A model generated the notes under the pieces. That model did not search any database. It was given only the letters and a program-made list of their open reading frames with translations, and had not been told where the DNA came from. From Nitrospirota bacterium (GTDB lineage: Bacteria; Nitrospirota; UBA9217), in contig DASPQB010000113.1 in NCBI GenBank assembly GCA_035625205.1, positions 13,078 through 77,077 of the forward strand: a stretch of DNA of 64,000 nt, in the 5' to 3' direction. The position numbers and the translations under genes were made by a program. Below, one piece after another: positions 2,109 to 59,261 of this stretch; the stretch's first letter is position 1; the number at the start of each line of letters is the position of its first letter.

Positions 2109-2988
2109 AGTCTCTCCTTATGAATCCGCCTATCCTCGGACCACTAGCGGAAACTAGTGCCAATTACAACATGGGCTTCTCTCTACGGAAATTAATACCA
2201 CCTTGTATAGAGCTCAATACCAGATTGAGGCAAAACCAGGATGTAACTAGTAACGGAAAACTATATCACAAAATTCAATTATACAAAATATATTTGTGAT
2301 CGGTTCCATGGTTTGACCGCAGGAAGAGTCGATCAACCCAGGGACTCATCGGAATGAGGTAATGCGGGCCTGATGTCTGGCCAGGGCCACGAAGTTGAGG
2401 TTGCAAATGTCTGCAGAAACGGGGTTAATAAAGGGCTTTGTCGCGTCTCACAAGGAAAATTTTTAGAGCCACGCTCAATACTTAAGGGGTCCTGAAAGGT
2501 CGTGCCGTGAAATACGCATCATCTGAGTTGCTGGAGAAAATGCCCATAGCGACCTGGTCTTCGGTCCACCCATGCGGTTTCAATCTATCCTCTGCCCGTC
2601 CGTCCAATTCTGGGACGTATAGCATACAAAAATTCGTTTTCTGCAGGACAATATCAGGGCAGAGGCAAGGTCGCCGGGAGCGGATGGAACATGTAACGTT
2701 GGGAGCCTGTCAAACGGGTCGCGTGGTCCAAGCTAAATAAAAATGATCAAAAACCATAGGCACCCTTTTTCGTCAACGGGAGGAATCAGATATCATGGAG
2801 AGTGCATGCAAGAAATTATTATTGACCGGACGTAGCGCGCATGATAACTTGTCTCTCAGACGTTCCGGTCAGAACCGGTTCATCAGCAAAGAATGATCGG
2901 GACAGATGAATTGATCAGATATCGGCAGGAGCGCATTTACTAGACTTGTCCCGCTATTCACGTTTTTCGTCTCCTGGGGAAAGGCCGC

Positions 2989-4386
2989 ATGAAATACACC
3001 AAGAGCTTCAAAGGGCAGAGATACGTCTTCGAGGATATTAAAACCCTTCTGGCTAGGGCGTCGCCGCTGCGGTCAGCGGATGAGCTGGCCGGGATTGCCG
3101 CAACCTCGGAGGAAGAGCGGGCAGTCGCCCAATGGCTCCTGTCCGATCTGCCGTTGTCGAAGTTCCTCGCGGAACCATTGATTCCGCCGGAGGAAGACGA
3201 GGTCAGCCGGCTCATAGAGGAGACCCACGACCGAACCGCATTCGCCCCGATTTCGTCTTTCACGGTGGGTGAATTTCGCGAATGGCTTTTGACCAATGCC
3301 ACCTCGGACGAAGAAATTGCTGCGATCCGATTTGGGATTACGCCGGAAATGGCAGCGGCGGTTTCCAAGATCATGCGCAACCAGGATTTGATTGCGGTAG
3401 CCAGACGCTGTTCGGTAACAACCCGGTTCCGCAACACTATTGGACTGCCGGGCCGACTCGCCACGCGGCTGCAACCCAATCATCCTACCGACGATCCCCG
3501 GGGAATCGCCGCCAGTGTGCTGGATGGGCTGCTTTACGGCAGCGGCGATGCGGTCATCGGCATTAACCCGGCGACGGATAGCCCGAAGAACGTGGAACGC
3601 CTGCTCCATCTTCTTGATGACATCATCCGGCGGCATGAAATCCCTACTCAGTCCTGCGTGCTGGCTCACATCACCACCACGCTGGAACTGATGCGCCGCG
3701 GCGCTCCGGTGGATTTGGTGTTTCAGTCCATCGCCGGGACCGAAGCGGCCAACAAAAGCTTCGGAATAAACCTGGAGCTTTTGTCCGAAGCACGCGAGAC
3801 AGCACTTGCCATGAGACGCGGAATAGTGGGCGACAACCTGATGTATTTTGAAACCGGGCAGGGCAGCGCGCTGTCAGCCAACGCCCATCACGGAATCGAT
3901 GCGCAAACCTGCGAGGCGCGGGCCTATGCCGTAGCCCGTGCGTTCTCGCCTCTCTTGGTCAATACCGTGGTCGGTTTCATCGGGCCGGAATATCTCTACG
4001 ACGGCAAACAGATTATTCGAGCCGGGCTGGAGGACCATTTCTGCGGCAAACTGCTAGGCCTGCCCATGGGTTGCGACGTGTGCTACACCAACCACGCTGA
4101 GGCTGACCAGAACGACATGGACAATCTGATGACCCTGCTCGCTGTGGCGGGCTGCACCTACATCATGGGCGTTCCCGGCGCAGACGACGTCATGCTGGCC
4201 TATCAGAGCACCTCATTCCATGACGCGCTGTATCTCCGCCGCGTACTGGGACTCAGACCCGCGCCTGAATTCGAGGATTGGCTGAACCGTATGGGGATAT
4301 TCGACGGGCGCAACGCAGTATGCCAAGGCATCAAATCGCCTCGGCTCTTAGGCGCCATCAACGAGCTGACGAAAGAGGAACTATGA
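2989..4386 (+). CDS. eutB: Ethanolamine ammonia-lyase large (heavy) subunit.
   Basis: The 465-aa ORF has full-length EutB-like sequence (MKYTKSFKGQRYVFEDIKTLLA...GINPATDS...). Its TGA overlaps the eutC ATG (ATGA). Confidence 0.93.
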   Translation: MKYTKSFKGQRYVFEDIKTLLARASPLRSADELAGIAATSEEERAVAQWLLSDLPLSKFLAEPLIPPEEDEVSRLIEETHDRTAFAPISSFTVGEFREWLLTNATSDEEIAAIRFGITPEMAAAVSKIMRNQDLIAVARRCSVTTRFRNTIGLPGRLATRLQPNHPTDDPRGIAASVLDGLLYGSGDAVIGINPATDSPKNVERLLHLLDDIIRRHEIPTQSCVLAHITTTLELMRRGAPVDLVFQSIAGTEAANKSFGINLELLSEARETALAMRRGIVGDNLMYFETGQGSALSANAHHGIDAQTCEARAYAVARAFSPLLVNTVVGFIGPEYLYDGKQIIRAGLEDHFCGKLLGLPMGCDVCYTNHAEADQNDMDNLMTLLAVAGCTYIMGVPGADDVMLAYQSTSFHDALYLRRVLGLRPAPEFEDWLNRMGIFDGRNAVCQGIKSPRLLGAINELTKEEL

Positions 4387-5931: not shown

Positions 5932-6240
5932 CTAATAACCCGAAGCTTTTGCGAAAGCGCTTGCTTGATCATGCAGGAAATAAATATCCGGCTTGTCAAT
6001 GACACCCGCCTTCTCCATTGCCTGCCGCAAATCCAGAGATTCGGAAAACGCTTTTGCACGGTCGAGGTCTTTGGCCTCGAATAGAATAATCACCTCATTC
6101 GTCTCGTTTGCGCCGCGAAACAGATACTTCTCGGTGAGACCCGCCTCAAGCCGCTTCGGGAGGTGGGCATCATAGCCACGCTTCCACACCGAATAATCTC
6201 TGACTTTATGTCGAACAAGTATATAGGTAGTCATCTTCAA
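5932..6240 (-). CDS. Small alpha/beta-barrel protein (Dabb/ABM-like fold), function unknown.
   Basis: A 102-aa ORF (MKMTTYILVRHKVRDYSVWKRGYDAHLPKRLEAGL...). Its composition is coding-like and its size and pattern suggest a stress-responsive alpha/beta barrel. No family assignment is certain. Confidence 0.4.
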   Translation of the reverse strand: MKMTTYILVRHKVRDYSVWKRGYDAHLPKRLEAGLTEKYLFRGANETNEVIILFEAKDLDRAKAFSESLDLRQAMEKAGVIDKPDIYFLHDQASAFAKASGY

Positions 6241-6737
6241 CCTCCTGCGCTGCCGACATTCATCGCCATCTCTTCCATCAGGTCAGTACGATTGCGGCAG
6301 TTCGCTTTGTATAGCTTACTTGCATGCTTACTATAAGAATATCTCCTCTTCGTGCAATGTCAATGCTACTTAAGTCCGTCGCATATCAGCATCAGATTTG
6401 ACACAGTTTGAACCCCGCCTTACCTGCAAGCGGAAACTGATCTGGCCAGCATGCAATAGGATCACGAAATCGGTGCAGCCTGTCTTCTCGTGATCGATGT
6501 TTTATAGGTATGAACTGATTCATAATAAAGTACCACCCGCTGCGCAGTCCGTGTCACGATGCTTGATAGCTATTGTTCGGGACCCTGCCGCAGGCCTTAT
6601 TTTTTTTCAGTGATATACTTATGACATCAGATGTTCTCAGGATTGAAAAACATGTTCATGCGTGCTTCAATTCCAACGTGACGACGGTTCAGTCGCAGTT
6701 TTACTGGTTGGCTGAGCATGAATATGAGGAGGAGACT

Positions 6738-7178
6738 ATGAACACACTAGAAATCGTTAAAAAGGCTTTAGCAGAAATCGAAAAAGGGACTATCGATGCA
6801 TCGATGTATAGCGAGGACATGATCTTCAGCGGACCAGTGCCAAAGCCCCTAAAACGGGATGAGTACTTGACGCTGCTTAGGAACTTGGTCGGAGCGTCCC
6901 CCGACTGGAATTTTCATGCCCGCAACTTCACCGTCCTCGGCGACACGGTTAAGGTAACTGTCAGCATAACAGGCACGCAGACCCGGACCTTACCAGGGCT
7001 TATGCCGGGCATGCAGGCGCTGCCACCGACCAACAAGCGCTTCATTCTTCCCGAGGAGCACCTATCAATCAAGGTATGCGGAGATAAAATCTGTGAACTT
7101 GTTGCCGATGTGGTGCCAGATGGTGGCGTCATTGGAATACTGACGCAACTGGGCGTAAACATAAAGAAAGCGGCATGA
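6738..7178 (+). CDS. NTF2-like / SnoaL-like domain protein.
   Basis: A GAGGAGG RBS precedes ATG 6738. The translation MNTLEIVKKALAEIEKGTIDASMYSEDMIFSGPVPKPLKRDEYLTLLRNL...NFTVLGDTVKVTVSITG is NTF2-fold-like. The longer track ORF from 6573 lacks an RBS. Confidence 0.55.
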   Translation: MNTLEIVKKALAEIEKGTIDASMYSEDMIFSGPVPKPLKRDEYLTLLRNLVGASPDWNFHARNFTVLGDTVKVTVSITGTQTRTLPGLMPGMQALPPTNKRFILPEEHLSIKVCGDKICELVADVVPDGGVIGILTQLGVNIKKAA

Positions 7179-7836
7179 AGGCACACTGATGTCGTATGGC
7201 AAAGCGGGGCCGTTCCTCTCTCGAGCACCAGGTTGTTTCTGCCAGCAAACGGTTCCCGCTCTCCGCCGCACTAAAATCTCAGACCGCACCGATTCACGAG
7301 AAGGGTCTGATGGATGATGTTATGCGTCGTAAGCTTTGCTCTGACGCTATCTTGACAAAGATGGCGAGGTGATGAGGAAACTTCCACAATTATCGTAGAA
7401 TCTCTAGAGTTCTTGTTTCTGTTTGGAGAACGCTAAACCTCCTTCTCTAATTCTAGTCTGAACGGATATGAAAATGACCTCGCATTCATCATTGATCTAA
7501 GCCAAGTTGTTGCACCAGGTGCAGAGTTGAACGCTAAAATCCTTGAGGGTTCTAAAAAACTGAACAGACCAAAAGTGGGAATTGCTTGCTCTTGCTTTTC
7601 TTACTCGTATGCAAGCTGTATTTTGGTATTCTTGAACCTTATCATAAAATTGACTATGCAAAATTGCAGGTATTGACGAGATAGATACAAATTTTGACGA
7701 GGTGCAAAATCGCAGTTGAAACATGCGGTGTGGACTCTATACTGAATCTGTGATTGGGAAAAAACAAAACGAATAGCAGGTCACCTCTTCGTTCTGCGCG
7801 GAGGTGAATCGTTTATCCTAAGAGAATAGGTTACTG

Positions 7837-8547
7837 ATGGCTGTTAAGACAAAAGTGCTCGTGGCGCAAACTGTAATCCTGTTTCTGGTCTTTGCTGTGG
7901 CCTTATTTCTCCCGGCTGGCACCATCGCTTGGCTTTCTGGGTAGATCTTCCTCGTCCTGTTTTTTGGTTTTTACATAACCGTCAATTTATGGCTATACAG
8001 GCACAACCCTGGATTGCTCCAAGAGCGCATGACCATGTTCAAATCCAATCAAAAAATGTGGGATAAGGTCCTGTTTACCTTGATAGAAGTTCTCTTCATT
8101 GCATGGTTGGGCCTAATGTCGTTAGACGCTGTTCGATTTCGATGGTCACAATTGCCAGTCTGGCCTCAGGTTGCTGGGGCGATAATCCTGTTGTCCTCGT
8201 TTTACGTGTTTTTTCTATCTTTTCGAGTAAACCCTTACCTGTCACCAGCCGTTCACATTCAGAAAGAGCGAGGGCAGACAGTAATTTCAACAGGTCCCTA
8301 TCACTATGTACGTCATCCAATGTATTCGGCCTTCATTCCCTTTGTGATAGGAACTCCGCTCTTACTGGGATCCTGGTACGGCGTTCTTGTAGGGGCAATC
8401 CATGTGGCCATTGTTGCGAGACGAGCGGTTTTGGAAGAACGCATGTTACGGAAGGAACTTACAGGATATGACGTCTATATGGTCCGAGTCAAATATCGTC
8501 TCATCCCCTATATATCCCCTATATATGGTAGGGATGATCGTGCTTGA
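7837..8547 (+). pseudogene. Isoprenylcysteine carboxyl methyltransferase (ICMT)-family membrane methyltransferase interrupted by an in-frame TAG at 7942-7944. A downstream TTG 8014 or ATG 8029 start would lack the first TM helix.
   Basis: The frame from ATG 7837 reads MAVKTKVLVAQTVILFLVFAVALFLPAGTIAWLSG, then TAG, then IFLVLFFGFYITVNLWLYRHNPGLLQERMTMF..., continuous with track ORF 8014..8547. That ORF carries the ICMT motif GPYHYVRHPMY. Bacterial ICMT-family N-termini typically read ...FLPAGT..W..W.., so the TAG plausibly replaces a TGG (Trp) codon. Confidence 0.5.
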
Positions 8548-9170
8548 TATGAAGACGACCACCCACTCCGTTATAACTCACGTGCGCGAGGTTTATGATC
8601 AGCGGTTCCTCGAAACACCAATAGTTCATTCCGTATTCTTGCCACTGAAATCTGCTGCTTTTTGTTGTTTCATGCGATACCCATAAAAATACCCCATTGT
8701 AATTTTCGATGTATGCTATATTGAAGACATATAAGTTTCGCTTACCTTTTCTTAGTTTCGCAATGACAAATATCAGAATACGTACATATCGTGCACTCAG
8801 ATCCTTTTGATAAATAAGCAACAATGATAAAGCCAAACCCTTCGCGAGAAGGAGATGGAAATCCACGGGTCTTAAAAGACCAAAACGGCCGAGCTGCCGA
8901 AGAATGTGCTCTTTCCTCTTGCTTGGATTTCTTATTTAGCGCAGGATCAAACAATGTGGCAAGGTGGTAGGATCAGGATTCTCAACAGATTACCGAATGT
9001 GGATTACAAACTTTACGAGTCTACGCAAGCGTATTCTGAATCTGTATAATCGCTCTCTTCTCTTCGGCCGCAAACCCTGATGATGAAATGTTCAGCACTA
9101 TGTTTCGAGCAAGGAGAGCGTGCAGCACGGATAATTCGTAACCTACCGGAGGTTTAACACGAAACGGTTA

Positions 9171-11249
9171 TTGAATACATTGATTTTGGTTCTTTTCGCA
9201 GCGATCCTCCTGTTTGCCTGCGGTGGATGGGGGTGCGGTAAAAACCAAAGCCCCAAATACACCGTAACCTATAACGGCAATGGTAGCACCGGCGGCAGCG
9301 TCGCGATCGACACAACCAACTATGTGTCGGGGCAGACCGTCACGGTGCTCGGGAATACAGGAGATCTAGCAACTATCGGGTATACCTTCTCGGGCTGGAA
9401 CACGGTATCTAATGGATCTGGCACGCTCTATACGCCAGGACAGACCTTTACGATGAGTTCGGCAAATGTCACTCTGTACGCGATGTGGACAGTAACGATA
9501 GCACGCGAGCTTTACGTAGCCAATTTACTGAACGATACGGTTACCGTATTTGATTCATCCATGAGCGGGAATGTGAATGCACTGAGACAATTTGGCAACA
9601 TTACAGGCTTGAACTTGCCAGTCGGCATTGCCGTGGACATGGTCAATAACCAAATCTTTGTGGCTAACTACGATACGATCACGGTATATGGGGGTACAGC
9701 AACCGGCAATGTCGCACCGGTAAGTACCATCTCCGGCACGAACACCGGTTTGAATAACCCACAGGGCATTGACGTGGACACTGTCAATAACCAGATCTTT
9801 GTGGCTAACTCGGGGAACAACTCACTCACGGTATATGGGAGTACAGCAACCGGCAATGTCACACCGGTAAGTACCGTCTCAGGGACAAGCACTGGCTTGA
9901 GCAGCCCCGTGGGCATTGCCGTGGACACGGTTCATGACCAGATCTTTGTGGCTAACTCCAATAATAACTCCATCACAGTATATGGGAGGACAGCAATCGG
10001 CAATGTCGCACCGGTAAGTACCATCTCCGGCTCGAACACAGGCTTGAATAAACCACAGGGCCTTGCCGTGGATACGCTTCATAACCAGATCTTTGTGGCC
10101 AATGGGGGGAACAATTCGATCACGGTATATGGAAGAACAGACACCGGGAATGTCAATCCGGTAAGTGCCATTTCCGGCACAAACACCGGTTTGAGCATCC
10201 CACACTTCATTGCCGTTGACACGGTTAATAACCAGATCTTTGTGGTTAACTACCATACGATCACGGCATATGGGAGGACAGACACCGGCAACGTCATTCC
10301 GGTAAGTACCATCTACGAAACCGCAAGCACTGGTTTGAGCTACCCACAGGGCATTGCCGTGAACACGGTAAATAGCCAGATCTTTGTGACCAATTGGGGG
10401 AACAGCTCAATCACGGTATATGATTCGACAGCCATCGGGAATGCTGCACCGGTAAATACCATATCCGCTCTGAGCACTGGTTTGAACACACCAAAGGGGA
10501 TTGCCGTGGACCCAGTAACTGATCAGATCTTTGTGACTAATTGGGGTAACAGCTCAATCACGGTATATGGCATGACAGACACCGGCAATATCTCACCGGT
10601 AAGCACCATCTCCGGAACAAGTACTGGCTTGAGAAGCCCAACCAGCATTACCGCGGACACGGTCAACAACCAGATCTTCGTGGCTAACATCGGTAACAAC
10701 TCAATCACGGTATATGGCACGACAGACACCGGGAATGTCGCACCGGTAAGTACCATCCCTGGAACAAACACTGGCGTGAGCGGCCCATTCGGCATTGCCG
10801 TGGACACGGTTACTAATCAGATCTTTGTGACCAACTCCAATAATAACTCCATCAAGGTATATGGGAGGACAGCCTCCGGCAATCTCACACCGGTAAGTAC
10901 CATCTCTGGCGAAAGCACTGGCTTGAGCGGCCCATACGCTATTGCCGTGGACACGGCAGATAACCAGATCTTTGTGACCAACTTCACTAATAACTCCATC
11001 ACGGTATATGAGGGGACAGCCTCCGGCAATGTCGCACCGGTAAGTACCATCTCCGGCGCAAACACTGGCTTGAACGGACCAGTGGGTATTGCCGTGGACA
11101 CGGTAAATAACCAGATCTTTGTGGCTAACGAAAGCAGCAACTCCATCACGGTATATAGCACGACAGCCACCGGGAATGTCACGCCGGTAAGTACCATCTC
11201 CGGCGCGAACTCAGGCTTGAGCGGACCATGGGGCATTGCGATTGAGTAG
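9171..11249 (+). CDS. Surface lipoprotein with an N-terminal Listeria/Bacteroides (InlB B-repeat-like) domain followed by about 12 YVTN-family beta-propeller repeats.
   Basis: TTG start 9171 with GGAGG at 9148-9152. Lipobox: LLFACGGW. The N-terminal part TVTYNGNGSTGGSV...YTFSGWNTVSNGSG...YAMWT is repeat-domain-like. About 12 tandem 46-aa units follow (IFVANSGNNSITVYG-TATGNVAPVSTISGTNTGLNNPQGIAVDTVNNQ), resembling 40-residue YVTN propeller repeats. It ends with TAG. Confidence 0.85.
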   Translation: MNTLILVLFAAILLFACGGWGCGKNQSPKYTVTYNGNGSTGGSVAIDTTNYVSGQTVTVLGNTGDLATIGYTFSGWNTVSNGSGTLYTPGQTFTMSSANVTLYAMWTVTIARELYVANLLNDTVTVFDSSMSGNVNALRQFGNITGLNLPVGIAVDMVNNQIFVANYDTITVYGGTATGNVAPVSTISGTNTGLNNPQGIDVDTVNNQIFVANSGNNSLTVYGSTATGNVTPVSTVSGTSTGLSSPVGIAVDTVHDQIFVANSNNNSITVYGRTAIGNVAPVSTISGSNTGLNKPQGLAVDTLHNQIFVANGGNNSITVYGRTDTGNVNPVSAISGTNTGLSIPHFIAVDTVNNQIFVVNYHTITAYGRTDTGNVIPVSTIYETASTGLSYPQGIAVNTVNSQIFVTNWGNSSITVYDSTAIGNAAPVNTISALSTGLNTPKGIAVDPVTDQIFVTNWGNSSITVYGMTDTGNISPVSTISGTSTGLRSPTSITADTVNNQIFVANIGNNSITVYGTTDTGNVAPVSTIPGTNTGVSGPFGIAVDTVTNQIFVTNSNNNSIKVYGRTASGNLTPVSTISGESTGLSGPYAIAVDTADNQIFVTNFTNNSITVYEGTASGNVAPVSTISGANTGLNGPVGIAVDTVNNQIFVANESSNSITVYSTTATGNVTPVSTISGANSGLSGPWGIAIE
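9500..11249 (+). repeat. Coding tandem repeat, about 12 units of 138 bp (46 aa), near-identical at the DNA level.
   Basis: Motifs such as ccggtaagtaccatctccggc and cagatctttgtggctaac recur every 138 bp from about 9650 to 11240. Many antisense ORFs in the track are artefacts of this periodicity. Confidence 0.8.
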
Positions 11250-11463
11250 AGCCTGGTAAGATTGGCACGTTCTGTTTCCCGACATCTTTTCATCCTTGGT
11301 CTTGATCCAGGTTACTCTTGCTGCGTAGCCGATGAATTGATCAATGCCCCGATTCATGAGCGGGCGGACGTGAGACCGCACGGGAAGCGCGTACAGGAGC
11401 GGAGGGGGCGCCCCGATAAATATTACTGAGTCTCATAAGAAGCTTTTTTCTATATCTATTTTC

Positions 11464-11493
11464 TTTACAATAAACACAATTCTGTACTAAAAT
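11464..11493 (+). promoter_or_regulatory. Candidate sigma70-type promoter (TTTACA, 18-nt spacer, TAAAAT) upstream of the pilin gene.
   Basis: tttaca at 11464-11469 and taaaat at 11488-11493, with an 18-nt spacer, 128 nt upstream of ATG 11621. Sequence-pattern only. Confidence 0.3.
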
Positions 11494-11620
11494 CATGCCA
11501 GTGATAATTAAAAAAGTTCCTGGAATGATTATTCCGGCAACAAGGGGTTCACAAACCCCAGGAGGTGATCGCTGGTCTGGTAGAGGAACGTCGGGACGTG
11601 CGGATGGCAGGGAGGGTTGA

Positions 11621-12034
11621 ATGGGCATTCAACAGAATAAAGAAAAGGGGCGGGGCGGGTTCACGTTGATCGAGCTGCTGATAGTTATCGTTATCCTCGG
11701 CATTCTCGCAGGCATCGCGATACCGCAGTATTTGACCTATCTTGACAAGGCCCGGCTGACGGCATCGATTTCAACGCTCTCTTCCCTAGGGAACGACATA
11801 GAATCTTACCATCTTAGTAATGGCCAGTATCCCCTCTCGATTGATTGGGCCACTTATACCGACCAGAACGGCAACAGTATCCTTACCGCGATGACCCCAA
11901 GCATGTTCTATGGCAAGATAGAAAGTTGGCTGACCTACAGCACAGAAAACGATACCTACACCGTCACGGCGACAGCGACCGATAGCAAGCAGACGCTCCT
12001 GACGCTTTCGCCCACGGGTGTGGCTAGCAATTAG
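11621..12034 (+). CDS. Prepilin-type N-terminal cleavage/methylation domain protein (type IV pilin or pseudopilin-like).
   Basis: The leader MGIQQNKEKGRGG is followed by FTLIELLIVIVILGILAGIAIPQY. This is the classic G/F cleavage site with Glu+5 and a hydrophobic helix. The protein is 137 aa. Confidence 0.85.
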   Translation: MGIQQNKEKGRGGFTLIELLIVIVILGILAGIAIPQYLTYLDKARLTASISTLSSLGNDIESYHLSNGQYPLSIDWATYTDQNGNSILTAMTPSMFYGKIESWLTYSTENDTYTVTATATDSKQTLLTLSPTGVASN

Positions 12035-12047
12035 AGGGAGAGGACCA

Positions 12048-12635
12048 ATGCGGAAACCAATGCGGAGAAATTACCTCGTTCACAAGGGTCTCCAGATCAA
12101 GTATGCGGTCATGGTCATTGCACTGCTGTTGATCTACACGATCATCCTGATGTCGGCAATCTTTGGACCGGCATTCCACATCCTGTCTTCCGGGCAGATT
12201 TCGCTCGCGGAGCGGGCCGAAACTGCGGAAGCCGTACTCCTGCTGAACAGCTCCATGTGGCCGTGGATCTGTCTGGTCGTCCTGCTTTTCGGAGGCATCA
12301 GCATCTTCATAACACATCGGCTGGCGGGTCCCGTCTTCGCGATCAAGCGGATGCTTAAGACTCTCGGCGACGGTGACTTTAGCGCGCGGATACGGCTGCG
12401 GAAGGGGGCCGAACTGCAAGACCTGGGAGATGCAGTGAATGATATGGCGGACCGGTACGAGTCGTTCGTGTCATCGCTTGATGAGCGGCTTCGGAATGTC
12501 GCCATCGAAGTACGCGCAATGGCGCGGCAGAATGAGGCGGTGAATAAATCATCGCTGCTGTCCGAGATTGAAGCCGTGGAGCAGCTCCTGGAAAAGTGCA
12601 CCTTCAAGAAAAAGGAAAAGATCGAGACGCCGTGA
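12048..12635 (+). CDS. Membrane protein with two TM helices and a HAMP domain, no recognisable output domain.
   Basis: A GGGAGAGGA RBS precedes ATG 12048. The translation has two hydrophobic segments, then a HAMP-like stretch ITHRLAGPVFAIKRMLKTLGDGDFSARIRLRKGAELQDLGDAVNDMA, then a coiled-coil tail. It overlaps or abuts the pilin gene end. Confidence 0.7.
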   Translation: MRKPMRRNYLVHKGLQIKYAVMVIALLLIYTIILMSAIFGPAFHILSSGQISLAERAETAEAVLLLNSSMWPWICLVVLLFGGISIFITHRLAGPVFAIKRMLKTLGDGDFSARIRLRKGAELQDLGDAVNDMADRYESFVSSLDERLRNVAIEVRAMARQNEAVNKSSLLSEIEAVEQLLEKCTFKKKEKIETP

Positions 12636-14231: not shown

Positions 14232-14624
14232 TTATTCATGGATAGCTCCGAGTGATTCATACGTACGGCCCGAGAAATCCGTAATTCCATTTGCGATCTC
14301 GTCCGAATCGCGTAAACCGCCCGCTCCTGATCCCGAATCTTCCATCAGGGAGCCCGTCGCTTCCGCGGGAACAGACCCGAGTGATTCATACGTGCCGCCT
14401 GAGAAATCCGTAACGCCATTTGCAATCTCAGCCGAATCGCGTAAACCACCCGCTCCCGATCCCGAATCTTCCATCAGGGAGCCGGTCGCTTCTGCGGGAA
14501 CAGATCCGAGTGATTCATACGTACCGCCCGAGAAATCCGTAACGCCATTCGCAGATTCTGCGTAGGCTGTTCCTAGGGCAAGAACAAATATCACTGATAT
14601 AGTTACAACGAGAAGTTTTTTCAT
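14232..14624 (-). CDS. Small secreted protein built from three tandem 41-aa repeats, function unknown.
   Basis: Signal peptide MKKLLVVTISVIFVLALGTAYA. This is followed by 2.7 copies of ANGVTDFSGGTYESLGSVPAEATGSLMEDSGSGAGGLRDS[AD]EI. The underlying 123-bp DNA repeats are nearly identical. Confidence 0.7.
   Translation of the reverse strand: MKKLLVVTISVIFVLALGTAYAESANGVTDFSGGTYESLGSVPAEATGSLMEDSGSGAGGLRDSAEIANGVTDFSGGTYESLGSVPAEATGSLMEDSGSGAGGLRDSDEIANGITDFSGRTYESLGAIHE
14235..14558 (-). repeat. Coding tandem repeat, 123 bp x about 2.7.
   Basis: Near-perfect DNA repeats (for example gagtgattcatacgt[ag]c[cg]gcc[ct]gagaaatccgtaa...) are visible on the plus strand across 14283-14520. Confidence 0.75.
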
Positions 14625-52276: not shown

Positions 52277-53269
52277 TCAGTACCTAATCCGTACGACCCC
52301 GACCTTATTCATCCCGCTGCACGCGATGTAAATATCACCGCCTGGCGTTGGTGCAATGTTGCGGACAACCCCGCCGCCCGATGGAATATCCCATTTTGCA
52401 AATGTTGCTTCTTTCGGATCAAAGCGGACAACGGTGTTCGGTTCCAAACCTGATTCACTGTACCACACCATACTATCCGGCGTAATGGCAATGCCGTAAG
52501 GCCGTGAATCTTTTCCTCCCGGGGACAGCCACTCGTTGACTCTGCCGTTCTTCGGATCCAATCTCCCCAGATATCCCCGCTGATAGTCCGTGTAAAAAAT
52601 GATATCATCACGGGTAATTGCCAATCTTCGTGGTCGTGCGCCTTCCGGCAACAAGTATTCATTGATCTCCATCGTCTTCGGGTTAATTCTCCCGATTTTG
52701 TTCGTCCCGAATTCACAGAAAAAGGGCACTCCTCTTGAGTCTACAACAATTCCGTATGGTTTCGAATCAGCGGTGGGCGACGGTCTTAACGTAATGGTCC
52801 CGTTCTGGGGGTCGAGTCTACCTACAAAGTTTCCTAGTTGGACCGTAAACCAGAGCATACCTGCATGGTCGAATACCAGAGAGTGCGGATCGTGTGCTAA
52901 GTGGCTGGGCATGGGATATTCTTTCACCTTGCCGGTGCGCGGATCAAGCCTTCCTATATAGCCTTTGTAATTGGCGGTGAACCAAATATAGCCATCCGTA
53001 TCCACAGTGAGCCCGTGCGGCCCGGAATCTGGAGTCTTGAGCCGGTACTCCTTTATCGTTCCTGTCGCTGGATCGAGCTTCCCGATCGTGTTCGCAAGAA
53101 TGCCTGTATACCAGAGCGATCCGTCAGGCCCCACAGCAGGATCGTGGGGAAAGGATTTCGGTGTCGGTACGTCCCATTCTTTAATTGATGCCGTCCCGGT
53201 TCCGAAAGCGACGAGTGATACATAAGCAATACAGAGAATAAAGGGGGTATGGAGGTTTCTGCGGCTCAT
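52277..53269 (-). CDS. Secreted beta-propeller protein of the Vgb (streptogramin-lyase-like) family.
   Basis: Signal peptide. Repeated IGRLDP.TG...EY / GP.G...D.DG..WF blades. 330 aa. Confidence 0.7.
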   Translation of the reverse strand: MSRRNLHTPFILCIAYVSLVAFGTGTASIKEWDVPTPKSFPHDPAVGPDGSLWYTGILANTIGKLDPATGTIKEYRLKTPDSGPHGLTVDTDGYIWFTANYKGYIGRLDPRTGKVKEYPMPSHLAHDPHSLVFDHAGMLWFTVQLGNFVGRLDPQNGTITLRPSPTADSKPYGIVVDSRGVPFFCEFGTNKIGRINPKTMEINEYLLPEGARPRRLAITRDDIIFYTDYQRGYLGRLDPKNGRVNEWLSPGGKDSRPYGIAITPDSMVWYSESGLEPNTVVRFDPKEATFAKWDIPSGGGVVRNIAPTPGGDIYIACSGMNKVGVVRIRY

Positions 53270-54174: not shown

Positions 54175-55197
54175 ATGAAGGCTATGCGTTGGGGTTCGAT
54201 TGTTTTAGTTGTGGCGTTATTCATAGGTTTTACTGCATTGGGAGAAGCCTCCGACCTTGTAAAGCTGCAGGGTGCAGGGGCCAGCTTTCCCGCTCCGCTC
54301 TATTTCAAGTGGTTTAAAGCCTACAGCGGTTCACACAACAATGTGCAAATCGACTACCAATCGGTTGGCAGCGGTAGCGGTGTTAAGAGCTTCATGGACA
54401 AAACCGTGGACTTCGGCGCCAGCGATGCGGCAATGACACCGGAGGAGATGGCCCAGGTAGGCGCTGGGGTACAATGCCTCCCTATAACCGCCGGCAGTAT
54501 AGTGCTGGCATACAATGTACAGGGCGTGTCCGATTTGAAGCTATCCCGGAAAGCCTACGCTGACATCTTTTTGGGCAAGATCAAGAAGTGGAACGATCCC
54601 TTGATCGCCAAGTCCAACCCAGGAGTCAACCTTCCCGACATCCCAGTCAATGTAGTTGTGAGAGCCGACAGCAGCGGCACGACTTTTGTATTTACAAAGC
54701 ATTTGAGTGCCATTAGTCCTGACTTCGCCAAGAGTCCCGGCACCAATAAGATGCCTAACTGGCCAACAGGAACTCGTTCTAAAGGCAATGAGGGTGTCAC
54801 GGCAAGTATCAAGACGACGCCCGGGGCCATTGGCTACATCGAGTATGGCTATGCGAGAAGTCAGAAGCTTCCTATGGCAATCCTGGAGAACAAGTCAGGC
54901 AAGTATGTAACGGCTACTTCGGCATCAGGACAGGCTGCCCTCGCTTCAGCAAAAATACCAAGCGATCTGATAGCTTGGGTCTCTGACCCTGCTGCCAAGG
55001 ATGCCTATCCTATCGTCACTTACACCTGGCTTGTTTTTTACAAGAACTACCCTGACAAAAAGAAAACTTCGGTACTCAAGGACCTCTTGAAATACGTCGT
55101 GACTGACGGCCAGAAAGATGCTGATCCTCTTGGGTATATCCCTCTGCCAAAAGCCGTAAGCGAAAAAGTGATTACTGCACTTCAGAACATTCAGTAG
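54175..55197 (+). CDS. pstS: Phosphate ABC transporter substrate-binding protein.
   Basis: Signal peptide. GAGASFPAPLYFKWFKAY..YQSVGSGSG..DFGASDAAM.. is canonical PstS. Confidence 0.9.
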   Translation: MKAMRWGSIVLVVALFIGFTALGEASDLVKLQGAGASFPAPLYFKWFKAYSGSHNNVQIDYQSVGSGSGVKSFMDKTVDFGASDAAMTPEEMAQVGAGVQCLPITAGSIVLAYNVQGVSDLKLSRKAYADIFLGKIKKWNDPLIAKSNPGVNLPDIPVNVVVRADSSGTTFVFTKHLSAISPDFAKSPGTNKMPNWPTGTRSKGNEGVTASIKTTPGAIGYIEYGYARSQKLPMAILENKSGKYVTATSASGQAALASAKIPSDLIAWVSDPAAKDAYPIVTYTWLVFYKNYPDKKKTSVLKDLLKYVVTDGQKDADPLGYIPLPKAVSEKVITALQNIQ

Positions 55198-55209
55198 ACA
55201 GGTGCAATA

Positions 55210-56232
55210 ATGCCAGACATAAATCCAATATCAAGGCCACCTACGCGTTCTCAACAAATCGTGGATACTGCGTTCCGCTTGCTATGCTATGGTTTCGCGT
55301 GGCTTTCGGTCCTCATGGTGGCATTCATCATGCTGGAGATCGCTGCCAAGGCTGTGCCAGCTATGCGTCAGTACGGGCCCGGATTCCTCGTTGGAACCAC
55401 CTGGGACCCTAACACCGGACAGTTCGGGATTCTTCCGGAGATCTGGGGGACGCTCTACACATCTTTCCTTGCCCTGTTCATCGGTACGATCTTCGGGGTG
55501 GCGGCGGCAATATTCCTGAGCGAAGGGTTCCTGGCCCAAGCTGTGTTTCATATCTTGAAGGCTTTCAATCTGCAATTCCATCCGATGCTGGGCAAATTGC
55601 CCGACCGGATGGAGGCCGTGCTGAAGAACCTGATTGAACTGTTAGCCGCGATCCCAAGCGTCGTTTACGGGTTATGGGGCCTGTTTGTGATCATTCCCCT
55701 TATACGGCCTGCATGCAATTGGCTGAACCTGAAACTCGGGTGGATTCCCCTGTTTAGTACCACGCTGACTGGCCCCGGAGTGCTGCCGGCGGTTATCGTC
55801 CTGGCTATCATGATTCTACCAACGATTACGGCCATCAGTCGTGACGCCCTGGTGTCGGTGCCTCCGAAACTCCGGATGGCCGCCTACGGCATGGGTGCCA
55901 CGCGATGGGAGACCATCCTGGCGGTCATCATTCCTACAGCCTTCCGTGGTATTGTCGGGGCAGTCATTCTGGCTTTCGGACGCGCTCTGGGAGAGACGAT
56001 GGCACTGGCCATGCTCGTTGGGAACGCCAACCGAATCAGCGTTTCGTTGTTTTCCCCAGCAAACACCCTGGCGGCGCTCCTGGCCAACAACTTCCCGGAA
56101 GCTGCGAAGAAGGATGTAGGGGTGCTTATGTATGCGGCACTTGTCCTTCTGGCAATTACGCTGTTTGTCAACATCGCAGGGGCGCTCATCCTTCAGAGGG
56201 CATCAGCCGCACAGGAGGGGGGAAAGGCATGA
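55210..56232 (+). CDS. pstC: Phosphate ABC transporter permease.
   Basis: 340 aa, 6 TM, with the PstC-type EAA loop. Gene order supports the call. Confidence 0.88.
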   Translation: MPDINPISRPPTRSQQIVDTAFRLLCYGFAWLSVLMVAFIMLEIAAKAVPAMRQYGPGFLVGTTWDPNTGQFGILPEIWGTLYTSFLALFIGTIFGVAAAIFLSEGFLAQAVFHILKAFNLQFHPMLGKLPDRMEAVLKNLIELLAAIPSVVYGLWGLFVIIPLIRPACNWLNLKLGWIPLFSTTLTGPGVLPAVIVLAIMILPTITAISRDALVSVPPKLRMAAYGMGATRWETILAVIIPTAFRGIVGAVILAFGRALGETMALAMLVGNANRISVSLFSPANTLAALLANNFPEAAKKDVGVLMYAALVLLAITLFVNIAGALILQRASAAQEGGKA

Positions 56233-57176
56233 ACACGAAAGATATCGCCTTGAAACCACCTATGCAACCCCTTAGACCTGACATAAATCCATTTGCCGGC
56301 GTGGACTTCCCTGAACTGGAGAAATCCCTCCGGCGTCCCCGCACGCTTGTTGGCCTGCTCCTGAGCAGCCTGGTATCTGCGATGACGCTGTTGGCTCTGG
56401 TTCCCCTGTTCTCCGTGTTGTTGATGTTGCTCTGGCGTGGCGGCCAGAGACTCAGCCTGGCTATCTTCACGCAATTGCCGCCCGCGCCATTGGAGCAAGG
56501 CGGGGGATTCGGAAACGCAATCCTCGGCACACTGATTATGGTCGCCTTCGCAGCATTGATCAGTATACCGCTCGGAATTCTCAGCGCTGTGTACCTGGCT
56601 CAGGCGAGGCCGGAGAGCCCTCTCGCCGGCGCGGTCAGATTCGGGGCCAAGATCTTAACAGGGTTTCCGTCTATCCTTGCCGGCGTGTTCGCCTATGGCG
56701 TCCTGGTACTGGCTTTTGGCGGCTACTCCGCGATCGCAGGAGGTGTTGCCCTTTCAATACTGATGCTGCCGACTATCATCCTGACCGCTGAAGACTCCAT
56801 CCGTATGGTTCCGGCAAAGATGCGGGAAGCGTCAATCGGGATGGGGGCTACTCCCACGCAGACCACCTGGATGGTCCTCTTGCCTACAGCCATGCCCGGC
56901 ATTCTTACCGGTATCATGCTTGCGGTAGCCCGCGCAGCTGGTGAAACCGCGCCATTGCTCTTCACAGCCCTTTTCAGCAACTACTGGATATTCGGGGGTG
57001 GATTTGACCTCAATCAGCCGACTGCGTCTTTAGCGGTGCTCATATATAACTTTGCAAGCATGCCCTTTGAGAACCAGGTAGACCTCGCCTGGGTGGCGGC
57101 ACTAGTTCTCGTATTGCTGGTGTTGATCACCAATCTTATCGGGCAGGCGTTCTCACGCCGTCAAATTCAGGATTAG
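56229..57176 (+). CDS. pstA: Phosphate ABC transporter permease.
   Basis: ATG 56229 overlaps the pstC TGA (ATGA). The sequence MNTKDIALKPP... is PstA-like. The track ORF extended from 55905 is an overlap artefact. Confidence 0.88.
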   Translation: MNTKDIALKPPMQPLRPDINPFAGVDFPELEKSLRRPRTLVGLLLSSLVSAMTLLALVPLFSVLLMLLWRGGQRLSLAIFTQLPPAPLEQGGGFGNAILGTLIMVAFAALISIPLGILSAVYLAQARPESPLAGAVRFGAKILTGFPSILAGVFAYGVLVLAFGGYSAIAGGVALSILMLPTIILTAEDSIRMVPAKMREASIGMGATPTQTTWMVLLPTAMPGILTGIMLAVARAAGETAPLLFTALFSNYWIFGGGFDLNQPTASLAVLIYNFASMPFENQVDLAWVAALVLVLLVLITNLIGQAFSRRQIQD

Positions 57177-57188
57177 GAGTGTCTCGAC

Positions 57189-58043
57189 ATGGCAAAGGCA
57201 ATCCACCCAGAAAAAAGTTCTAACTGCCGGAATGACAACGCTAACGGACCGGCCAAGGCATGCAGGAATGATGGAGTTGTAATAGACTGTAAGATCGATG
57301 AACTTTACTACAGCACCTTTAAAGCCGTCCGTGATACGTCTATCCCGGTAAGCAAGAATAAAATCACGGCCTTCATCGGACCGTCAGGGTGCGGGAAAAG
57401 TACGGTTTTGCGCTGCCTGAACAGGATGAACGACCTGGTGCGGGGTTTCCGGTTCAAAGGCCACGTGCACTTCCTCGGCAAGGATATCTATCACCCTTCT
57501 GTAGATGCAACAGCCGTACGACGCTTTATCGGCATGGTATTTCAACAGCCTAACCCATTCGCCATGAGCATTTATAATAACGTCGCATTCGGCTTGAGGT
57601 TGAATAGTTATAGAGGACCAGTGGCCGAGAGGGTCGAAGATGCTTTGAAACGTGCCGCGCTGTGGGATGAGGTCAAGGACAAGCTGCACAAGAGCGGCCT
57701 TTCACTGTCCGGCGGGCAACAGCAGCGACTCTGCATTGCGAGGGCCATAGCCACAGAGCCGGAGGTCCTGCTCATGGATGAGCCGTGCTCCGCTCTCGAC
57801 CCTATCGCCACACGCAAGATCGAAGAACTCATGGTGGAACTCAAGACACGCTACACGATTGCCATTGTTACCCATAATCTGCAGCAGGCGCAGCGTGTCG
57901 CCGACAACACCGCTTTCCTGTACGTAGACACCTCGGGCGGTGGCAGGTGCGGATACCTTGTCGAGTTCGGTGAGTCGAAGCAGGTATTTAGTGAACCCAG
58001 AGAACAGTACACCAAAGACTACATCAGCGGTCAGTTCAGCTAA
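57189..58043 (+). CDS. pstB: Phosphate ABC transporter ATP-binding protein.
   Basis: Walker [10 protein letters not shown], signature LSGGQQQRL, Walker B LLMDEP. PstB-typical 284 aa. Confidence 0.9.
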
Positions 58044-58154
58044 CGACATCGTGCCGATTTCGCGAAGCACTGTCAGGTGTACATTCCAGGTCTACGGCTC
58101 ACGGTCAATGCTCACAGAAGTGGGGCTCCCCATTATCCACAGAGAGAAAATATT

Positions 58155-59261
58155 ATGCGAATTTACAAAGCAATCCATGTGGCATTGAGAGGTACTGCTT
58201 CTTTTTTGGCATTGATCGTTCTTCTGGGAAGTGTCCAGGGTTGTTCTTTGCAAGATGGCAGGGAGAAAAAGGTCGAATCGCCTCCCGGCAGTGTTCTTTT
58301 GCGCGGGGCCGGAGCTACCTTCCCCTCGCCGCTCTACAAACGCTGGTTTGATGTCTACCGCGAGAACCAGCCCAAGACCATCATTACCTACGACAGCGTG
58401 GGCAGTGGAGAAGGCATCCGGCGGTTCATCGGAAAGAACGTCAAAGAGGAGGAGTTAGTGGATTTCGGAGCCAGCGACGCCGCGATGAGTGACGAGGATA
58501 TCGCAAAGGTCCAAAACAGCGTGGTGTTGCTGCCCTTTACAGCCGGCAGCGTAGTACTCGCCTACAACCTCCCCCACATGGACGTTGATCTCAAGCTCTC
58601 GCGAAAGGCTTATGCCGGCATATTCCAGGGTGATATCAAGAAATGGAACGACCCTGCAATCGCAAAAACCAATCCGGGTGTGAAGCTTCCGAATTTATCT
58701 ATCGCGACCGTTGTGCGTCAGGATAGCAGCGGCACAACTTATGCGTTCACGAAACACCTCGATGCCATAAGTGAAAAGTGGCGCGCAGAGCATGGTCCAG
58801 CTACTCTGCTAAATTGGCCCGGCAACGCAATGCGGGCAAAGGGTAATGAGGGTGTTGCCGCTCGCATCAGCCAGTCAATCGGCTCTATCGGCTATGTCAG
58901 CAATGAGTTCGCCCGCAAGCTGGGGCTGAAGTTGGCAGTGCTTGAGAACAGGGAAGGGAATTTCGTCAAGCCGACGGAGCAGAGCTGCACAGCGGCGTTG
59001 GCTACCGCAGAGATGCCTGAGAACCTGAGAGTCTTTGTGCCGGATCCCTCGGGGCAGGATGCTTACCCGATCGTCACCTTTAGCTGGATCCTGCTCTACA
59101 AAAACTATACGGACGCTGAAAAGGCAAAGTCTATACGTACCCTGTTCCAGTGGTGCCTGCTGGATGGTCAGAAATACGCCCCTCAACTTGGATACGTCCC
59201 GCTGCCGGCGAAAGTCACTGATAGAATCCTGGCAGCACTCAATGCTGTCGGGCCGCGGTAG
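58155..59261 (+). CDS. pstS: Second phosphate-binding protein paralogue (lipoprotein).
   Basis: ATG 58155. Lipobox LLGSVQGCS. GAGATFPSPLYKRWFDVY..YDSVGSGEG..DFGASDAAM. Confidence 0.85.
   Translation: MRIYKAIHVALRGTASFLALIVLLGSVQGCSLQDGREKKVESPPGSVLLRGAGATFPSPLYKRWFDVYRENQPKTIITYDSVGSGEGIRRFIGKNVKEEELVDFGASDAAMSDEDIAKVQNSVVLLPFTAGSVVLAYNLPHMDVDLKLSRKAYAGIFQGDIKKWNDPAIAKTNPGVKLPNLSIATVVRQDSSGTTYAFTKHLDAISEKWRAEHGPATLLNWPGNAMRAKGNEGVAARISQSIGSIGYVSNEFARKLGLKLAVLENREGNFVKPTEQSCTAALATAEMPENLRVFVPDPSGQDAYPIVTFSWILLYKNYTDAEKAKSIRTLFQWCLLDGQKYAPQLGYVPLPAKVTDRILAALNAVGPR

Follow-up and report, generated by a model that had tools for sequence, protein, structure and literature searches.

The locus analysed here, from a Nitrospirota MAG, places a lipoprotein gene with a long repeat array ahead of genes for a type IV pilin and a small HAMP-domain membrane protein, and the question that it raises is whether the three encode one surface system, or merely lie beside one another. 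All three open reading frames are present in the window, by which we mean the whole 64-kb stretch of DNA analysed, as they were earlier described, although the public annotation has later starts for the lipoprotein and HAMP genes (Table). The arrangement is best explained as two independent units side by side: the lipoprotein gene, and a self-contained operon of the pilin and what we call the mini-HAMP protein.

Table. Features of the locus, numbered from the first nucleotide of the window.
Feature	Position	Strand	Details
sigma70-like site	8763-8792		just upstream of candidate riboswitch
Candidate c-di-GMP-I (GEMM-I, 'GGC' variant) riboswitch aptamer	8823..8902	+	in leader of lipoprotein gene
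NHL-repeat lipoprotein gene	9171..11249	+	692 aa, TTG start; public annotation: TTG 9180, 689 aa
12-blade propeller array	9507..11246	+	blades of 45-49 aa; 147-bp period from 9678
sigma70-like promoter candidate	11464..11493	+	TTTACA-18-TAAAAT; 10/12 consensus positions
Palindrome	11588-11599		ACGTC-GG-GACGT; in conserved leader downstream of promoter candidate
RBS	11610-11616		GGGAGGG; in pilin-HAMP leader
Orphan type IV pilin gene	11621..12034	+	137 aa
Mini-HAMP gene	12048..12635	+	195 aa from the ATG of the public annotation; ORF 12018-12635
HAMP domain of mini-HAMP protein	12306-12455		

The lipoprotein comprises a signal peptide with a lipobox, one InlB-B/Listeria-Bacteroides repeat and 12 blades. 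Its N-terminus (MNTLILVLFAAILLFA followed by C) has the predicted lipobox (L-F-A-C) and cysteine (Cys17) of a bacterial lipoprotein, the latter at least 90% conserved among 20 relatives, with the caveat that the n-region of this predicted signal lacks K or R when read from the called start. The head (approximately aa 30-107) had been likened to InlB B-repeats, and indeed scores 41.8 bits against PF09479 over aa 30-104, above the cut-off of 27; it is 60-73% identical to repeats of many proteins. The blades, by contrast, were originally assigned to the YVTN type, but no YVTN repeat model was found among the NCBIfam hits to the lipoprotein at E <= 0.01, and the YncE equivalog was rejected, with 56.5 bits where 400 are required. 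The NHL model (PF01436) instead reaches 164.3 bits on the array, in nine stretches, against a cut-off of 20; the Pfam E-values are 1.3e-49 for NHL, 3.4e-27 for Lactonase and 1.1e-10 for Flg_new. The blades belong to the same broad superfamily as YVTN repeats, but NHL is the better label.

Twelve tandem units were counted, as predicted, of which the first is divergent and blades 2-12 all begin QIFV. Their period is 147 bp (49 aa), rather than the 138 bp (46 aa) first proposed, and TRF finds 10.6 copies of this period with 77% matches. Nor are the units near-identical, as had been claimed: the mean identity of blades 2-12 is approximately 75% in DNA and 65% in protein (maxima of 88% and 80%), and the longest exact word common to blades is 35 bp. 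The AF2 model of the lipoprotein has a pLDDT above 90 over residues 110-689, with four strands in each of the 12 blades, and the best PDB matches from Foldseek are tandem double propellers, such as LRP6 E3E4, aligned over approximately 640 columns. Of the one or two beta-propellers that the original prediction envisaged, pending a structural model, both lines of evidence fit two; hence the array probably forms a pair of six-bladed propellers, the division into six and six being suggested by the model and these matches.

The resemblance between blades had been attributed to recent amplification or homogenisation. Some homogenisation is supported, as dS between blades has a median of approximately 0.5 but falls to 0.07 for blades 10 and 11, and blades are more similar within one protein (0.61) than between proteins (0.54). 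Recent amplification is not, and we reject it together with the predicted copy-number variation, given the 75% identity, the brevity of the longest shared word, the 12 blades of relatives and the agreement of two independent assemblies across the array, which also dismisses an assembly artefact in the repeat. The 12-blade layout is common to proteins just 44-56% identical, recurring in the relatives P0145 and P0177, and in P0193 if one boundary missed by the split pattern is allowed. Easy slippage is unlikely, because the units are too diverged, and no variation in their number was seen.

Homologues of the lipoprotein number in the hundreds, many of them sharing the InlB-B head, and the nearest full-length relative is 56% identical. 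It is best explained as an unremarkable binding protein from a very large family, facing the surface or the periplasm, and alone would be routine. It shares with NHL and YncE-like beta-propeller lipoproteins, and with tandem six-bladed propellers such as the YWTD pairs of LRP6, the 49-aa four-stranded blades, 12 to a protein, the lipobox and, often, the head, and is distinguished from them by moderate homogenisation of blades within the gene and by its leader. There, cmscan aligned a GEMM-I element over its full length (1-80/80) at 48.5 bits, below the family gathering score of 59, with an E-value of 2.4e-8 for the whole window; it is the sole Rfam match at E <= 0.001 in the 64 kb. No GEMM-I-like element was found upstream of two NHL lipoprotein relatives, and we therefore treat the one here as no more than a candidate, through which expression of the lipoprotein is possibly controlled by a c-di-GMP-type riboswitch.

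The case for a three-part surface system, in which lipoprotein, pilin and HAMP protein would act together and the number of repeats would vary, rests on the adjacency of the genes on one strand, in the window as well as in further assemblies of this strain. The original prediction had proposed searching for this neighbourhood in related genomes, and held that finding the pilin and HAMP genes in unrelated contexts, with the lipoprotein not conserved, would make the grouping coincidental. Half of this was found: synteny outside this strain preserves the adjacency of pilin and HAMP genes, which were never apart, but not that of the lipoprotein, which is absent beside the pair in every other lineage. 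Hence the trio is coincidental, and the three-gene system is rejected. Also against it are the spacer of 371 nt between lipoprotein and pilin genes, the pair's own conserved promoter-like region, the separate leader of the lipoprotein and the constancy of its blade number in relatives and between assemblies, and we regard it as very improbable. The lipoprotein is an ordinary, strain-specific neighbour of the pair, and the pilin and mini-HAMP genes very probably constitute a functional module to which it does not belong.

The evidence for this module comes from 27 loci in which a family-type pilin of 134-150 aa lies directly upstream of a family-type, two-TM, HAMP-only protein of approximately 195 aa. 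The core-family HAMP genes, defined as scoring above 225 bits, all have such a pilin directly upstream where the contig leaves room, as is true of L001-L014 and L016-L028, although L022 has no room; reverse look-ups from the pilins likewise reach the HAMP gene. Approximately 19 pairs are distinct, namely 17 complete ones that share less than 90% identity, together with L072 and L073, and they come from Nitrospirota, Geobacter and Smithella MAGs, as well as unbinned metagenome contigs. The genes lie -4 to +13 nt apart in 24 of the 25 loci measured, and in the window, given the annotated ATG, there is no overlap but a gap of 13 nt. Frameshifts in the pair in L012 were rejected as pseudogenisation and are instead assembly errors, because trpG and trpC of the same locus are frameshifted too. 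Judged from these sequences, the two genes form a tightly coupled cassette that has been retained in at least two phyla. The divergences of the pilin and HAMP proteins correlate (r = 0.89), which would be expected of any co-inherited neighbours.

Both genes are small, adjacency alone is no proof of interaction, and the two could be a frozen accident, co-transcribed and vertically inherited but functionally unrelated. This is quite unlikely, as the pair is intact across at least two phyla and its flanks vary by lineage, including trpD and trpC on either side, argJ/secA, an AmiC-like amidase and radical SAM; it has moved as a unit into the trp operon, argJ/secA and amidase locations, with a spacing of no more than 13 nt retained throughout. 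A recurrent third gene was sought beside the pair in these loci and not found. Most of the loci are short metagenomic contigs, and the finding that pilus and T2SS genes are absent from the 64-kb window and the longer loci relates to approximately 10 loci that have 5 kb or more of flanking sequence; genes for a prepilin peptidase and assembly machine were likewise not found in the window or the relatives' flanks. The pairing is non-standard, as the original prediction had it, lacking pilus genes nearby and possessing its own conserved upstream region. The last 60 nt or so of the leader are conserved in 4/4 aligned lineages, despite their different upstream genes, and the hexamers of the promoter-like element predicted ahead of the pilin are kept in L004 and L007, although the number of sigma70-like sites in the region does not exceed that in shuffles. 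We infer that this element acts as the promoter of the pilin-HAMP operon. A literature search returned nothing relevant on pilin-HAMP pairing or on HAMP-only proteins, and the cassette appears to be previously undescribed.

The upstream partner is best explained as a small type IVa pilin that looks competent for assembly. It has a 13-aa leader, with cleavage predicted between G13 and F14, and a mature protein of 124 aa without cysteines. The prepilin site originally recognised, G|FTLIE, is borne out by class III signal models (PF07963, 34.5 against 21.2 bits; TIGR02532, 33.2 against 16.3), and across the family G-1 (G13) and E+5 (E18) are invariant, with Tyr24 and Tyr27 of the mature protein conserved. 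The fold is that of a pilin, a long alpha1 helix packed on an antiparallel sheet, and is closest to filament-forming pilins, and TDQNGN and YP are among the motifs conserved on the surface of the head. Identity as GspG was rejected, TIGR01710 reaching 55.5 of the required 88.85 bits over residues 13-72 only, and PF08334 an E-value of 0.028; NCBIfam offered no named model for either member of the pair. Relative to the small type IVa pilins PilA4 of Thermus thermophilus, PilA-N of Geobacter and PilE of P. aeruginosa, this protein has no disulfide, is encoded outside a pil locus, and has a globular-domain sequence for which no relative was found in the PDB.

The downstream partner begins with a basic motif (RRNYLVHKGLQIKY). 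Its two helices, TM1 (approximately aa 18-42) and TM2 (approximately aa 69-91), are separated by a periplasmic loop of 26 aa; the HAMP domain is followed by a short coiled coil of low conservation, and the protein ends some 59 aa past HAMP. As the loop is so short, the protein has no sensor domain of its own. PF00672, starting from the end of TM2 as is typical of HAMP domains, scores 35.6 bits against a cut-off of 25 and is the only Pfam match; no NCBIfam model reached its cut-off, so the description of a two-TM HAMP protein without an output domain stood. The GP of AS1 is invariant in the family, in which conservation is 0.69 and 0.74 for the TM helices, 0.62 for HAMP and 0.42 for the C-terminus. 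The sequence is 100% identical to an NCBI 'HAMP domain-containing protein [Nitrospirota bacterium]'. Some relatives are named as MCPs or histidine kinases in their sources, an identity rejected here because there is no output domain, kinase and MCP models scoring below 33 bits against cut-offs of at least 290. Fusions to output domains were absent among the top 150 mini-HAMP representatives. These proteins belong to a large unnamed family of HAMP-only proteins of around 200 aa, spanning dozens to hundreds of 50%-identity clusters.

How might such a pair function? By analogy with PilA-PilS or PilA-PleC, the membrane helix of the pilin may be read within the membrane by the mini-HAMP protein, a tentative reading to which we give somewhat less than an even chance. 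The pilin would be cleaved by a prepilin peptidase encoded elsewhere and would remain in the inner membrane, anchored there by the alpha1 helix, which the unusually conserved TM1/TM2 bundle of a mini-HAMP dimer would bind. The amount or state of membrane-resident pilin, altered by extension and retraction or by ligand binding to the head, would then switch the conformation of HAMP, and this would be relayed through the C-terminal coil to a cytoplasmic partner. The support for direct binding is indirect. Firstly, the synteny of the two genes is obligate. Secondly, they are translationally coupled. Thirdly, the TM helices are more conserved than HAMP itself. Against this, the coil that would carry the output is poorly conserved, and tight operon coupling is equally expected of a role in assembly or as a chaperone.

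In the latter role, the mini-HAMP protein would send no signal onwards and would serve as a dedicated membrane escort, one that keeps this pilin stable or controls its admission to a pilus or pseudopilus machine whose genes lie elsewhere. Such a chaperone would account for the coupling at -4 to +13 nt, which suggests stoichiometric co-production, for the lack of an output domain or conserved downstream partner, and for the weakly conserved C-terminal region. It would not account for a HAMP domain that is well conserved, above the Pfam cut-off and canonical in its features (Pro in AS1), as to our knowledge HAMP occurs solely as a module that converts signals. The mini-HAMP protein is also unrelated to the accessory proteins known for pilins. 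We consider this unlikely.

A split receptor, in which the pilin-like protein is a detachable, membrane-held periplasmic sensor whose head binds ligand, and the mini-HAMP protein supplies the TM and cytoplasmic half, seems similarly doubtful. The missing periplasmic domain, the conserved motifs on the pilin head and the distance of the pair from pilus machinery in all cases would be consistent with it, as would the partners of distant mini-HAMP relatives, which lie directly downstream of envelope-exposed proteins: HEAT-repeat proteins with a signal peptide (15 loci), TonB-like anchors (4) and other prepilins (3). Such an upstream partner was present in approximately 19 of 31 loci with room for one, a tally from a crude hydrophobicity heuristic applied to raw ORFs. 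The same partners speak for the intramembrane reading as well. Yet the invariant E+5 and G-1, and the conserved Tyr24 and Tyr27, are hallmarks of processed, polymerised pilins, and the fold is closest to those that form filaments. Extended to the whole family, there is a small chance that mini-HAMP proteins are the common TM half of widespread two-piece envelope receptors, with exchangeable, separately encoded sensing halves: this clade would use a type IV pilin, a GC-rich clade a HEAT-repeat protein with a signal peptide, and a further clade a TonB-like anchor. In that case the pilin fold would have been co-opted for a sensor anchored in the membrane, and not for a fibre subunit.

Were intramembrane reading of the pilin helix correct, the occurrence of the cassette from Nitrospirota to Geobacter and Smithella would make pilin-based signalling a portable module, and two small proteins would provide a minimal system in which to study the switching of a HAMP domain by one membrane helix. 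We know of pilins acting as signals to membrane sensors in only a few model organisms, in which the sensor is a conventional kinase. Among these, PilS has six TM helices and lacks a HAMP domain. In Pseudomonas aeruginosa PilA binds PilS within the membrane, and in Caulobacter crescentus the TM helix of PilA binds TM1 of the kinase PleC, such that the sensor's TM bundle reports the inner-membrane pool of pilin (PMC7196804 and its reference 50; PMC6058289). The geometry that we infer here is the same, a pilin alpha1 helix against a two-TM bundle. PilS and PleC are each a complete histidine kinase that carries its own output, whereas the sensor here would be a protein of approximately 195 aa with HAMP alone, and neither of them is the translationally coupled partner of an orphan pilin. 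Minor pilins and PilY1 similarly act on the FimS-AlgR two-component system, providing pilin-like inputs to a membrane sensor (PMC5979040), as is proposed here, but the genes for those pilins belong to a pilus operon, the pilus that they prime is a known one, and FimS is a kinase. If the pilin/mini-HAMP pair does sense as proposed, it would follow the logic of PilA-PilS and PilA-PleC, but hard-wired as a dedicated cassette, the sensor half of which has no output domain.

The pilin and HAMP genes very probably constitute a functional module to which the lipoprotein does not belong. All three open reading frames of the original prediction were present in the window, and it was their grouping into one surface system that failed when the same neighbourhood was sought in relatives. 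Firstly, wherever the HAMP protein is 79-83% identical to that of the window, the pilin and HAMP genes adjoin 13 nt apart, as they do in the window, and the upstream gene is different: a radical-SAM/SPASM gene and a 30-aa ORF in contig L003, and small ORFs on the other strand, with no known function, in L004-L007. Secondly, an NHL lipoprotein accompanies the pair in no relative outside the window's own strain. Thirdly, the 371-nt spacer preceding the pilin contains the separate promoter-like element that had been predicted, with both hexamers conserved in L004 and L007, and the four lineages aligned all retain the last ~60 nt of the leader, including a palindrome and the ribosome-binding site GGGAGGG. 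As this leader is preserved despite differing upstream genes, the pair is, judging from sequence, its own transcription unit, and the trio is not a unit. The palindrome itself might act as an operator or form an RNA hairpin.

In the public annotation the HAMP gene starts at ATG 12048 (195 aa), 13 nt after the pilin gene, so that the two do not overlap; the HAMP product is 100% identical to the NCBI entry 'HAMP domain-containing protein [Nitrospirota bacterium]'. The lipoprotein is called from TTG 9180 (689 aa). Its N-terminus ends in L-F-A-C, with the cysteine at least 90% conserved among 20 relatives, and the exact start is uncertain, because the n-region lacks K/R from the called start, which lies 18 nt from GGAGG. 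An 84-kb ENA metagenome contig (L001) overlaps the window, and the independent ENA assembly differs from the window at 18 of 20,588 bases, one of them within the lipoprotein gene, with length equal. Nothing points to mis-assembly or copy-number variation of the blade array.

Coordinates of features in the window and in related loci
Feature	Locus	Position (strand)	Details
PEMT/ICMT-family methyltransferase gene	window	8014-8547 (+)	near NHL lipoprotein gene
PEMT/ICMT-family methyltransferase gene	L071	1127-1702 (-)	near gene of lipoprotein relative P0193
Opposite-strand ORF	window	8519-8866	overlaps candidate aptamer; probably spurious
Sigma70-like site	window	8763-8792	~30 nt upstream of candidate aptamer
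Candidate c-di-GMP-I 'GGC' variant riboswitch aptamer	window	8823-8902 (+)	full-length Rfam match
Lipoprotein gene	window	9171-11249 (+)	NHL-repeat protein
Blades 10 and 11	window	10818-11111	
Promoter-like element	window	11464-11493	TTTACA-18-TAAAAT
Palindrome	window	11588-11599	ACGTC-GG-GACGT, 22 nt upstream of pilin ATG
Pilin gene	window	11621-12034 (+)	137 aa
HAMP gene	window	12048-12635 (+)	two TM helices
Signal-peptide repeat protein	window	14232-14624 (-)	130 aa, no Pfam match
Second, unrelated beta-propeller protein	window	52277-53269 (-)	Vgb_lyase/SGL family, 330 aa
Phosphate cluster	window	54175-62888	two PBP_like_2 binding proteins, Pst-type permeases, ABC ATPase, Ppx/GppA, polyphosphate kinase
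secA	L003 (Nitrospirota)	90-2729	~7 kb upstream of pair
Pair between trpD and trpC	L008 (Nitrospirota)	2143-3227	tryptophan operon
Pair between trpD and trpC	L012 (Nitrospirota)	9563-10369	tryptophan operon
secA	L011 (Geobacter)	6079-8931 (-)	convergent, ~70 nt from pair
Altered pilin	L019	3459-3821	globular half replaced by unrelated basic sequence
ExbB/TolQ-like, ExbD/TolR-like, TonB_2 anchor and mini-HAMP genes	L039	3780-6342	mini-HAMP 98 nt downstream

The lipoprotein adds one more member to a very common class of protein; the database holds hundreds of proteins of 600-1100 aa with its repeat unit, many of which also have its InlB-B head. The predicted head corresponds to one Listeria-Bacteroides/InlB-B repeat (Pfam, aa 30-104), and splitting the protein bore out the 12 tandem blades, of 45-49 aa each, with the first divergent and QIFV opening blades 2-12. 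The finer description was mistaken: Tandem Repeats Finder gives a period of 147 bp (10.6 copies, 77% matches), not 138 bp or 46 aa, and blades 2-12 average 75% identity in DNA and 65% in protein, reaching at most 88% (blades 10 and 11) and 80% (blades 5 and 9) respectively, with no exact word common to two blades longer than 35 bp, so they are not near-identical. Nor are they of YVTN type, as Pfam assigns NHL (E 1.3e-49, overlapped by Lactonase and Arylesterase matches), while the NCBIfam matches, lactonase and YncE, are sub-threshold and include no YVTN repeat model. An AlphaFold2 model built on 20 relatives gives each blade four strands and exceeds a pLDDT of 90 from residue 110 onwards, and its best PDB matches (LRP6 E3E4, LRP4, LRP2, Aip1 and Pwp2) are all tandem double-propeller proteins, aligned over ~640 columns. 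LRP6 E3E4 shares this arrangement, its own propellers being two six-bladed YWTD domains; from the model we infer two six-bladed propellers, narrowing the predicted 'one or two'.

The nearest full-length relative, P0145 (56% identity), splits into 12 blades, as does P0177, and P0193 has 12 once one boundary missed by the split pattern is allowed for. Mean blade identity within proteins (0.61 in the window, 0.60 in P0145) exceeds that between them (0.54), and only blade 1 retains positional orthology. Among eight 49-codon blades, median dS is 0.51 and dN 0.21 (Nei-Gojobori). As the 12-blade layout is old and fixed, and synonymous divergence between blades unsaturated, the sequences point to slow gene conversion, not recent amplification; of the predicted recent amplification or homogenisation, only the latter survives, in this slower form. 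The copy-number variation thought likely finds no support, given the 12 blades of relatives and the equal length of the ENA assembly. Blades 10 and 11 (dS 0.07 vs dN 0.16, with too few sites for significance) may record a recent conversion followed by amino-acid diversification. Elsewhere in the window, the 130-aa protein is built of 2.4 tandem copies of a unit of 129 bp or 43 aa (ANGVTDFSGGTYESLGSVPAEATGSLMEDSGSGAGGLRDS.EI), which at 90% identity is much more uniform than the propeller blades.

An Rfam scan, run to exclude known RNAs in leaders, gave one match at E <= 0.001 in the 64 kb: a c-di-GMP-I-GGC element ~270 nt before the lipoprotein start. Its 48.5 bits fall short of the gathering score (59), with E 2.4e-8 for the window as a whole. 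No clear terminator was found, and no such element occurs in the long leaders of two lipoprotein relatives. It is a candidate riboswitch by sequence match, which, if real, would tie the lipoprotein to a c-di-GMP-controlled surface lifestyle.

The pair, meanwhile, is widely distributed. A word-indexed search returned only 16 HAMP relatives, and a pilin search 11 close relatives, beyond which matches merge into generic pilins; a family HMM separates the two (at least 169 bits against at most 71). Contigs looked up individually, a scan of species-representative genomes and a metagenome scan anchored on the HAMP protein together yielded 27 loci with a core-family HAMP gene (>225 bits), and a family pilin lies directly upstream in every one with room, which L022 lacks. 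In 24 of 25 loci the two genes are spaced by -4 to +13 nt, and two reverse look-ups from a separate pilin sub-branch also led to a HAMP gene. The sole exception to this tight coupling is L019, where the altered pilin, 233 nt from the HAMP gene, may reflect either an insertion or the disruption of a pilin. With 90% identity as the limit, 17 complete pairs count as distinct, to which L072 and L073 are added, and pilin and HAMP divergences are correlated (r = 0.89). Where hosts are named, they are MAGs of Nitrospirota, Geobacter and Smithella. The flanking genes, largely housekeeping, vary from lineage to lineage: the pair lies between trpD and trpC in two other Nitrospirota assemblies and between argJ and secA in Geobacter, and in the Smithella type it comes after an AMIN-amidase/LysM gene and a 160-aa protein. 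Frameshifts in L012 are assembly errors, because trpG and trpC are also hit, and the proximity of secA in two lineages may be coincidence. No third gene recurs across the loci compared, neither the window nor the longer flanks of relatives contain pilus or type II secretion genes, and the window has no other prepilin motif. Neither NCBIfam nor the literature searched yielded a curated family, publication or annotation for the cassette. The synteny of the pair is obligate and portable, and its genes are translationally coupled; that they are co-transcribed but functionally unrelated is very unlikely.

The HAMP protein has a basic motif at its N-terminus (RRNYLVHKGLQIKY), two TM helices, TM1 and TM2, joined by a 26-aa loop, and, after these, a canonical HAMP domain and a coil of ~50 aa. 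As predicted, it has two TM helices and no output domain, with all NCBIfam models below their cut-offs. Mean column identity is highest in TM2 (0.74) and TM1 (0.69), followed by the HAMP domain (0.62), loop (0.57) and C-terminus (0.42), and the invariant residues (QxKY, YT, WP, FG..SIFxTH and GP) cluster within and beside the membrane. A profile search run exhaustively against 1.84 billion representatives yielded 33 clusters at E <= 1e-30 and a long tail of full-length HAMP-only proteins (185-225 aa, ~100 bits), none fused to an output domain. Remote mini-HAMP genes (40-105 bits) share the N-terminal motif and TM2-HAMP junction, with longer periplasmic segments. In 15 GC-rich loci (L032-L034, L037, L042, L043, L046, L052, L054, L059-L061, L066-L068) a signal-peptide HEAT_2-repeat protein of 234-336 aa is encoded a little way upstream of them, apparently another conserved, undescribed pair; in four (L039, L040, L045, L051) they follow ExbB/TolQ-like, ExbD/TolR-like and TonB_2 C-terminal anchor genes, and in three they adjoin a different prepilin gene. 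Judged by a crude test of hydrophobicity, 19 of 31 remote loci with room have, upstream on the same strand, a gene whose product carries a signal peptide or an N-terminal anchor, and several of the seeming misses are contig-truncated members of the HEAT group. This suggests that mini-HAMP proteins as a rule act together with an envelope-exposed partner encoded by a gene of its own.

The pair consists of a genuine pilin, which bears the hallmarks of processing and assembly, and a HAMP protein that lacks sensor and output domains and is most constrained in its membrane helices. The pilin might not polymerise, and instead form one half of a split receptor, which is unlikely; equally doubtful is a mini-HAMP acting as an escort or chaperone. 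Our tentative preference, possible rather than probable, is intramembrane pilin sensing by the mini-HAMP: the alpha1 helix of the processed pilin would bind the TM bundle of a mini-HAMP dimer in the inner membrane, and through this binding the size or state of the pilin pool would switch the HAMP domain. Such binding would mirror PilA-PilS and PilA-PleC, in the latter of which the first 17 pilin residues bind TM1 of the kinase (PMC7196804 and its reference 50; PMC6058289), and the proposed pilin input would be similar to that of the minor pilins that feed FimS-AlgR (PMC5979040). The cassette resembles known pilin-to-sensor coupling in principle.
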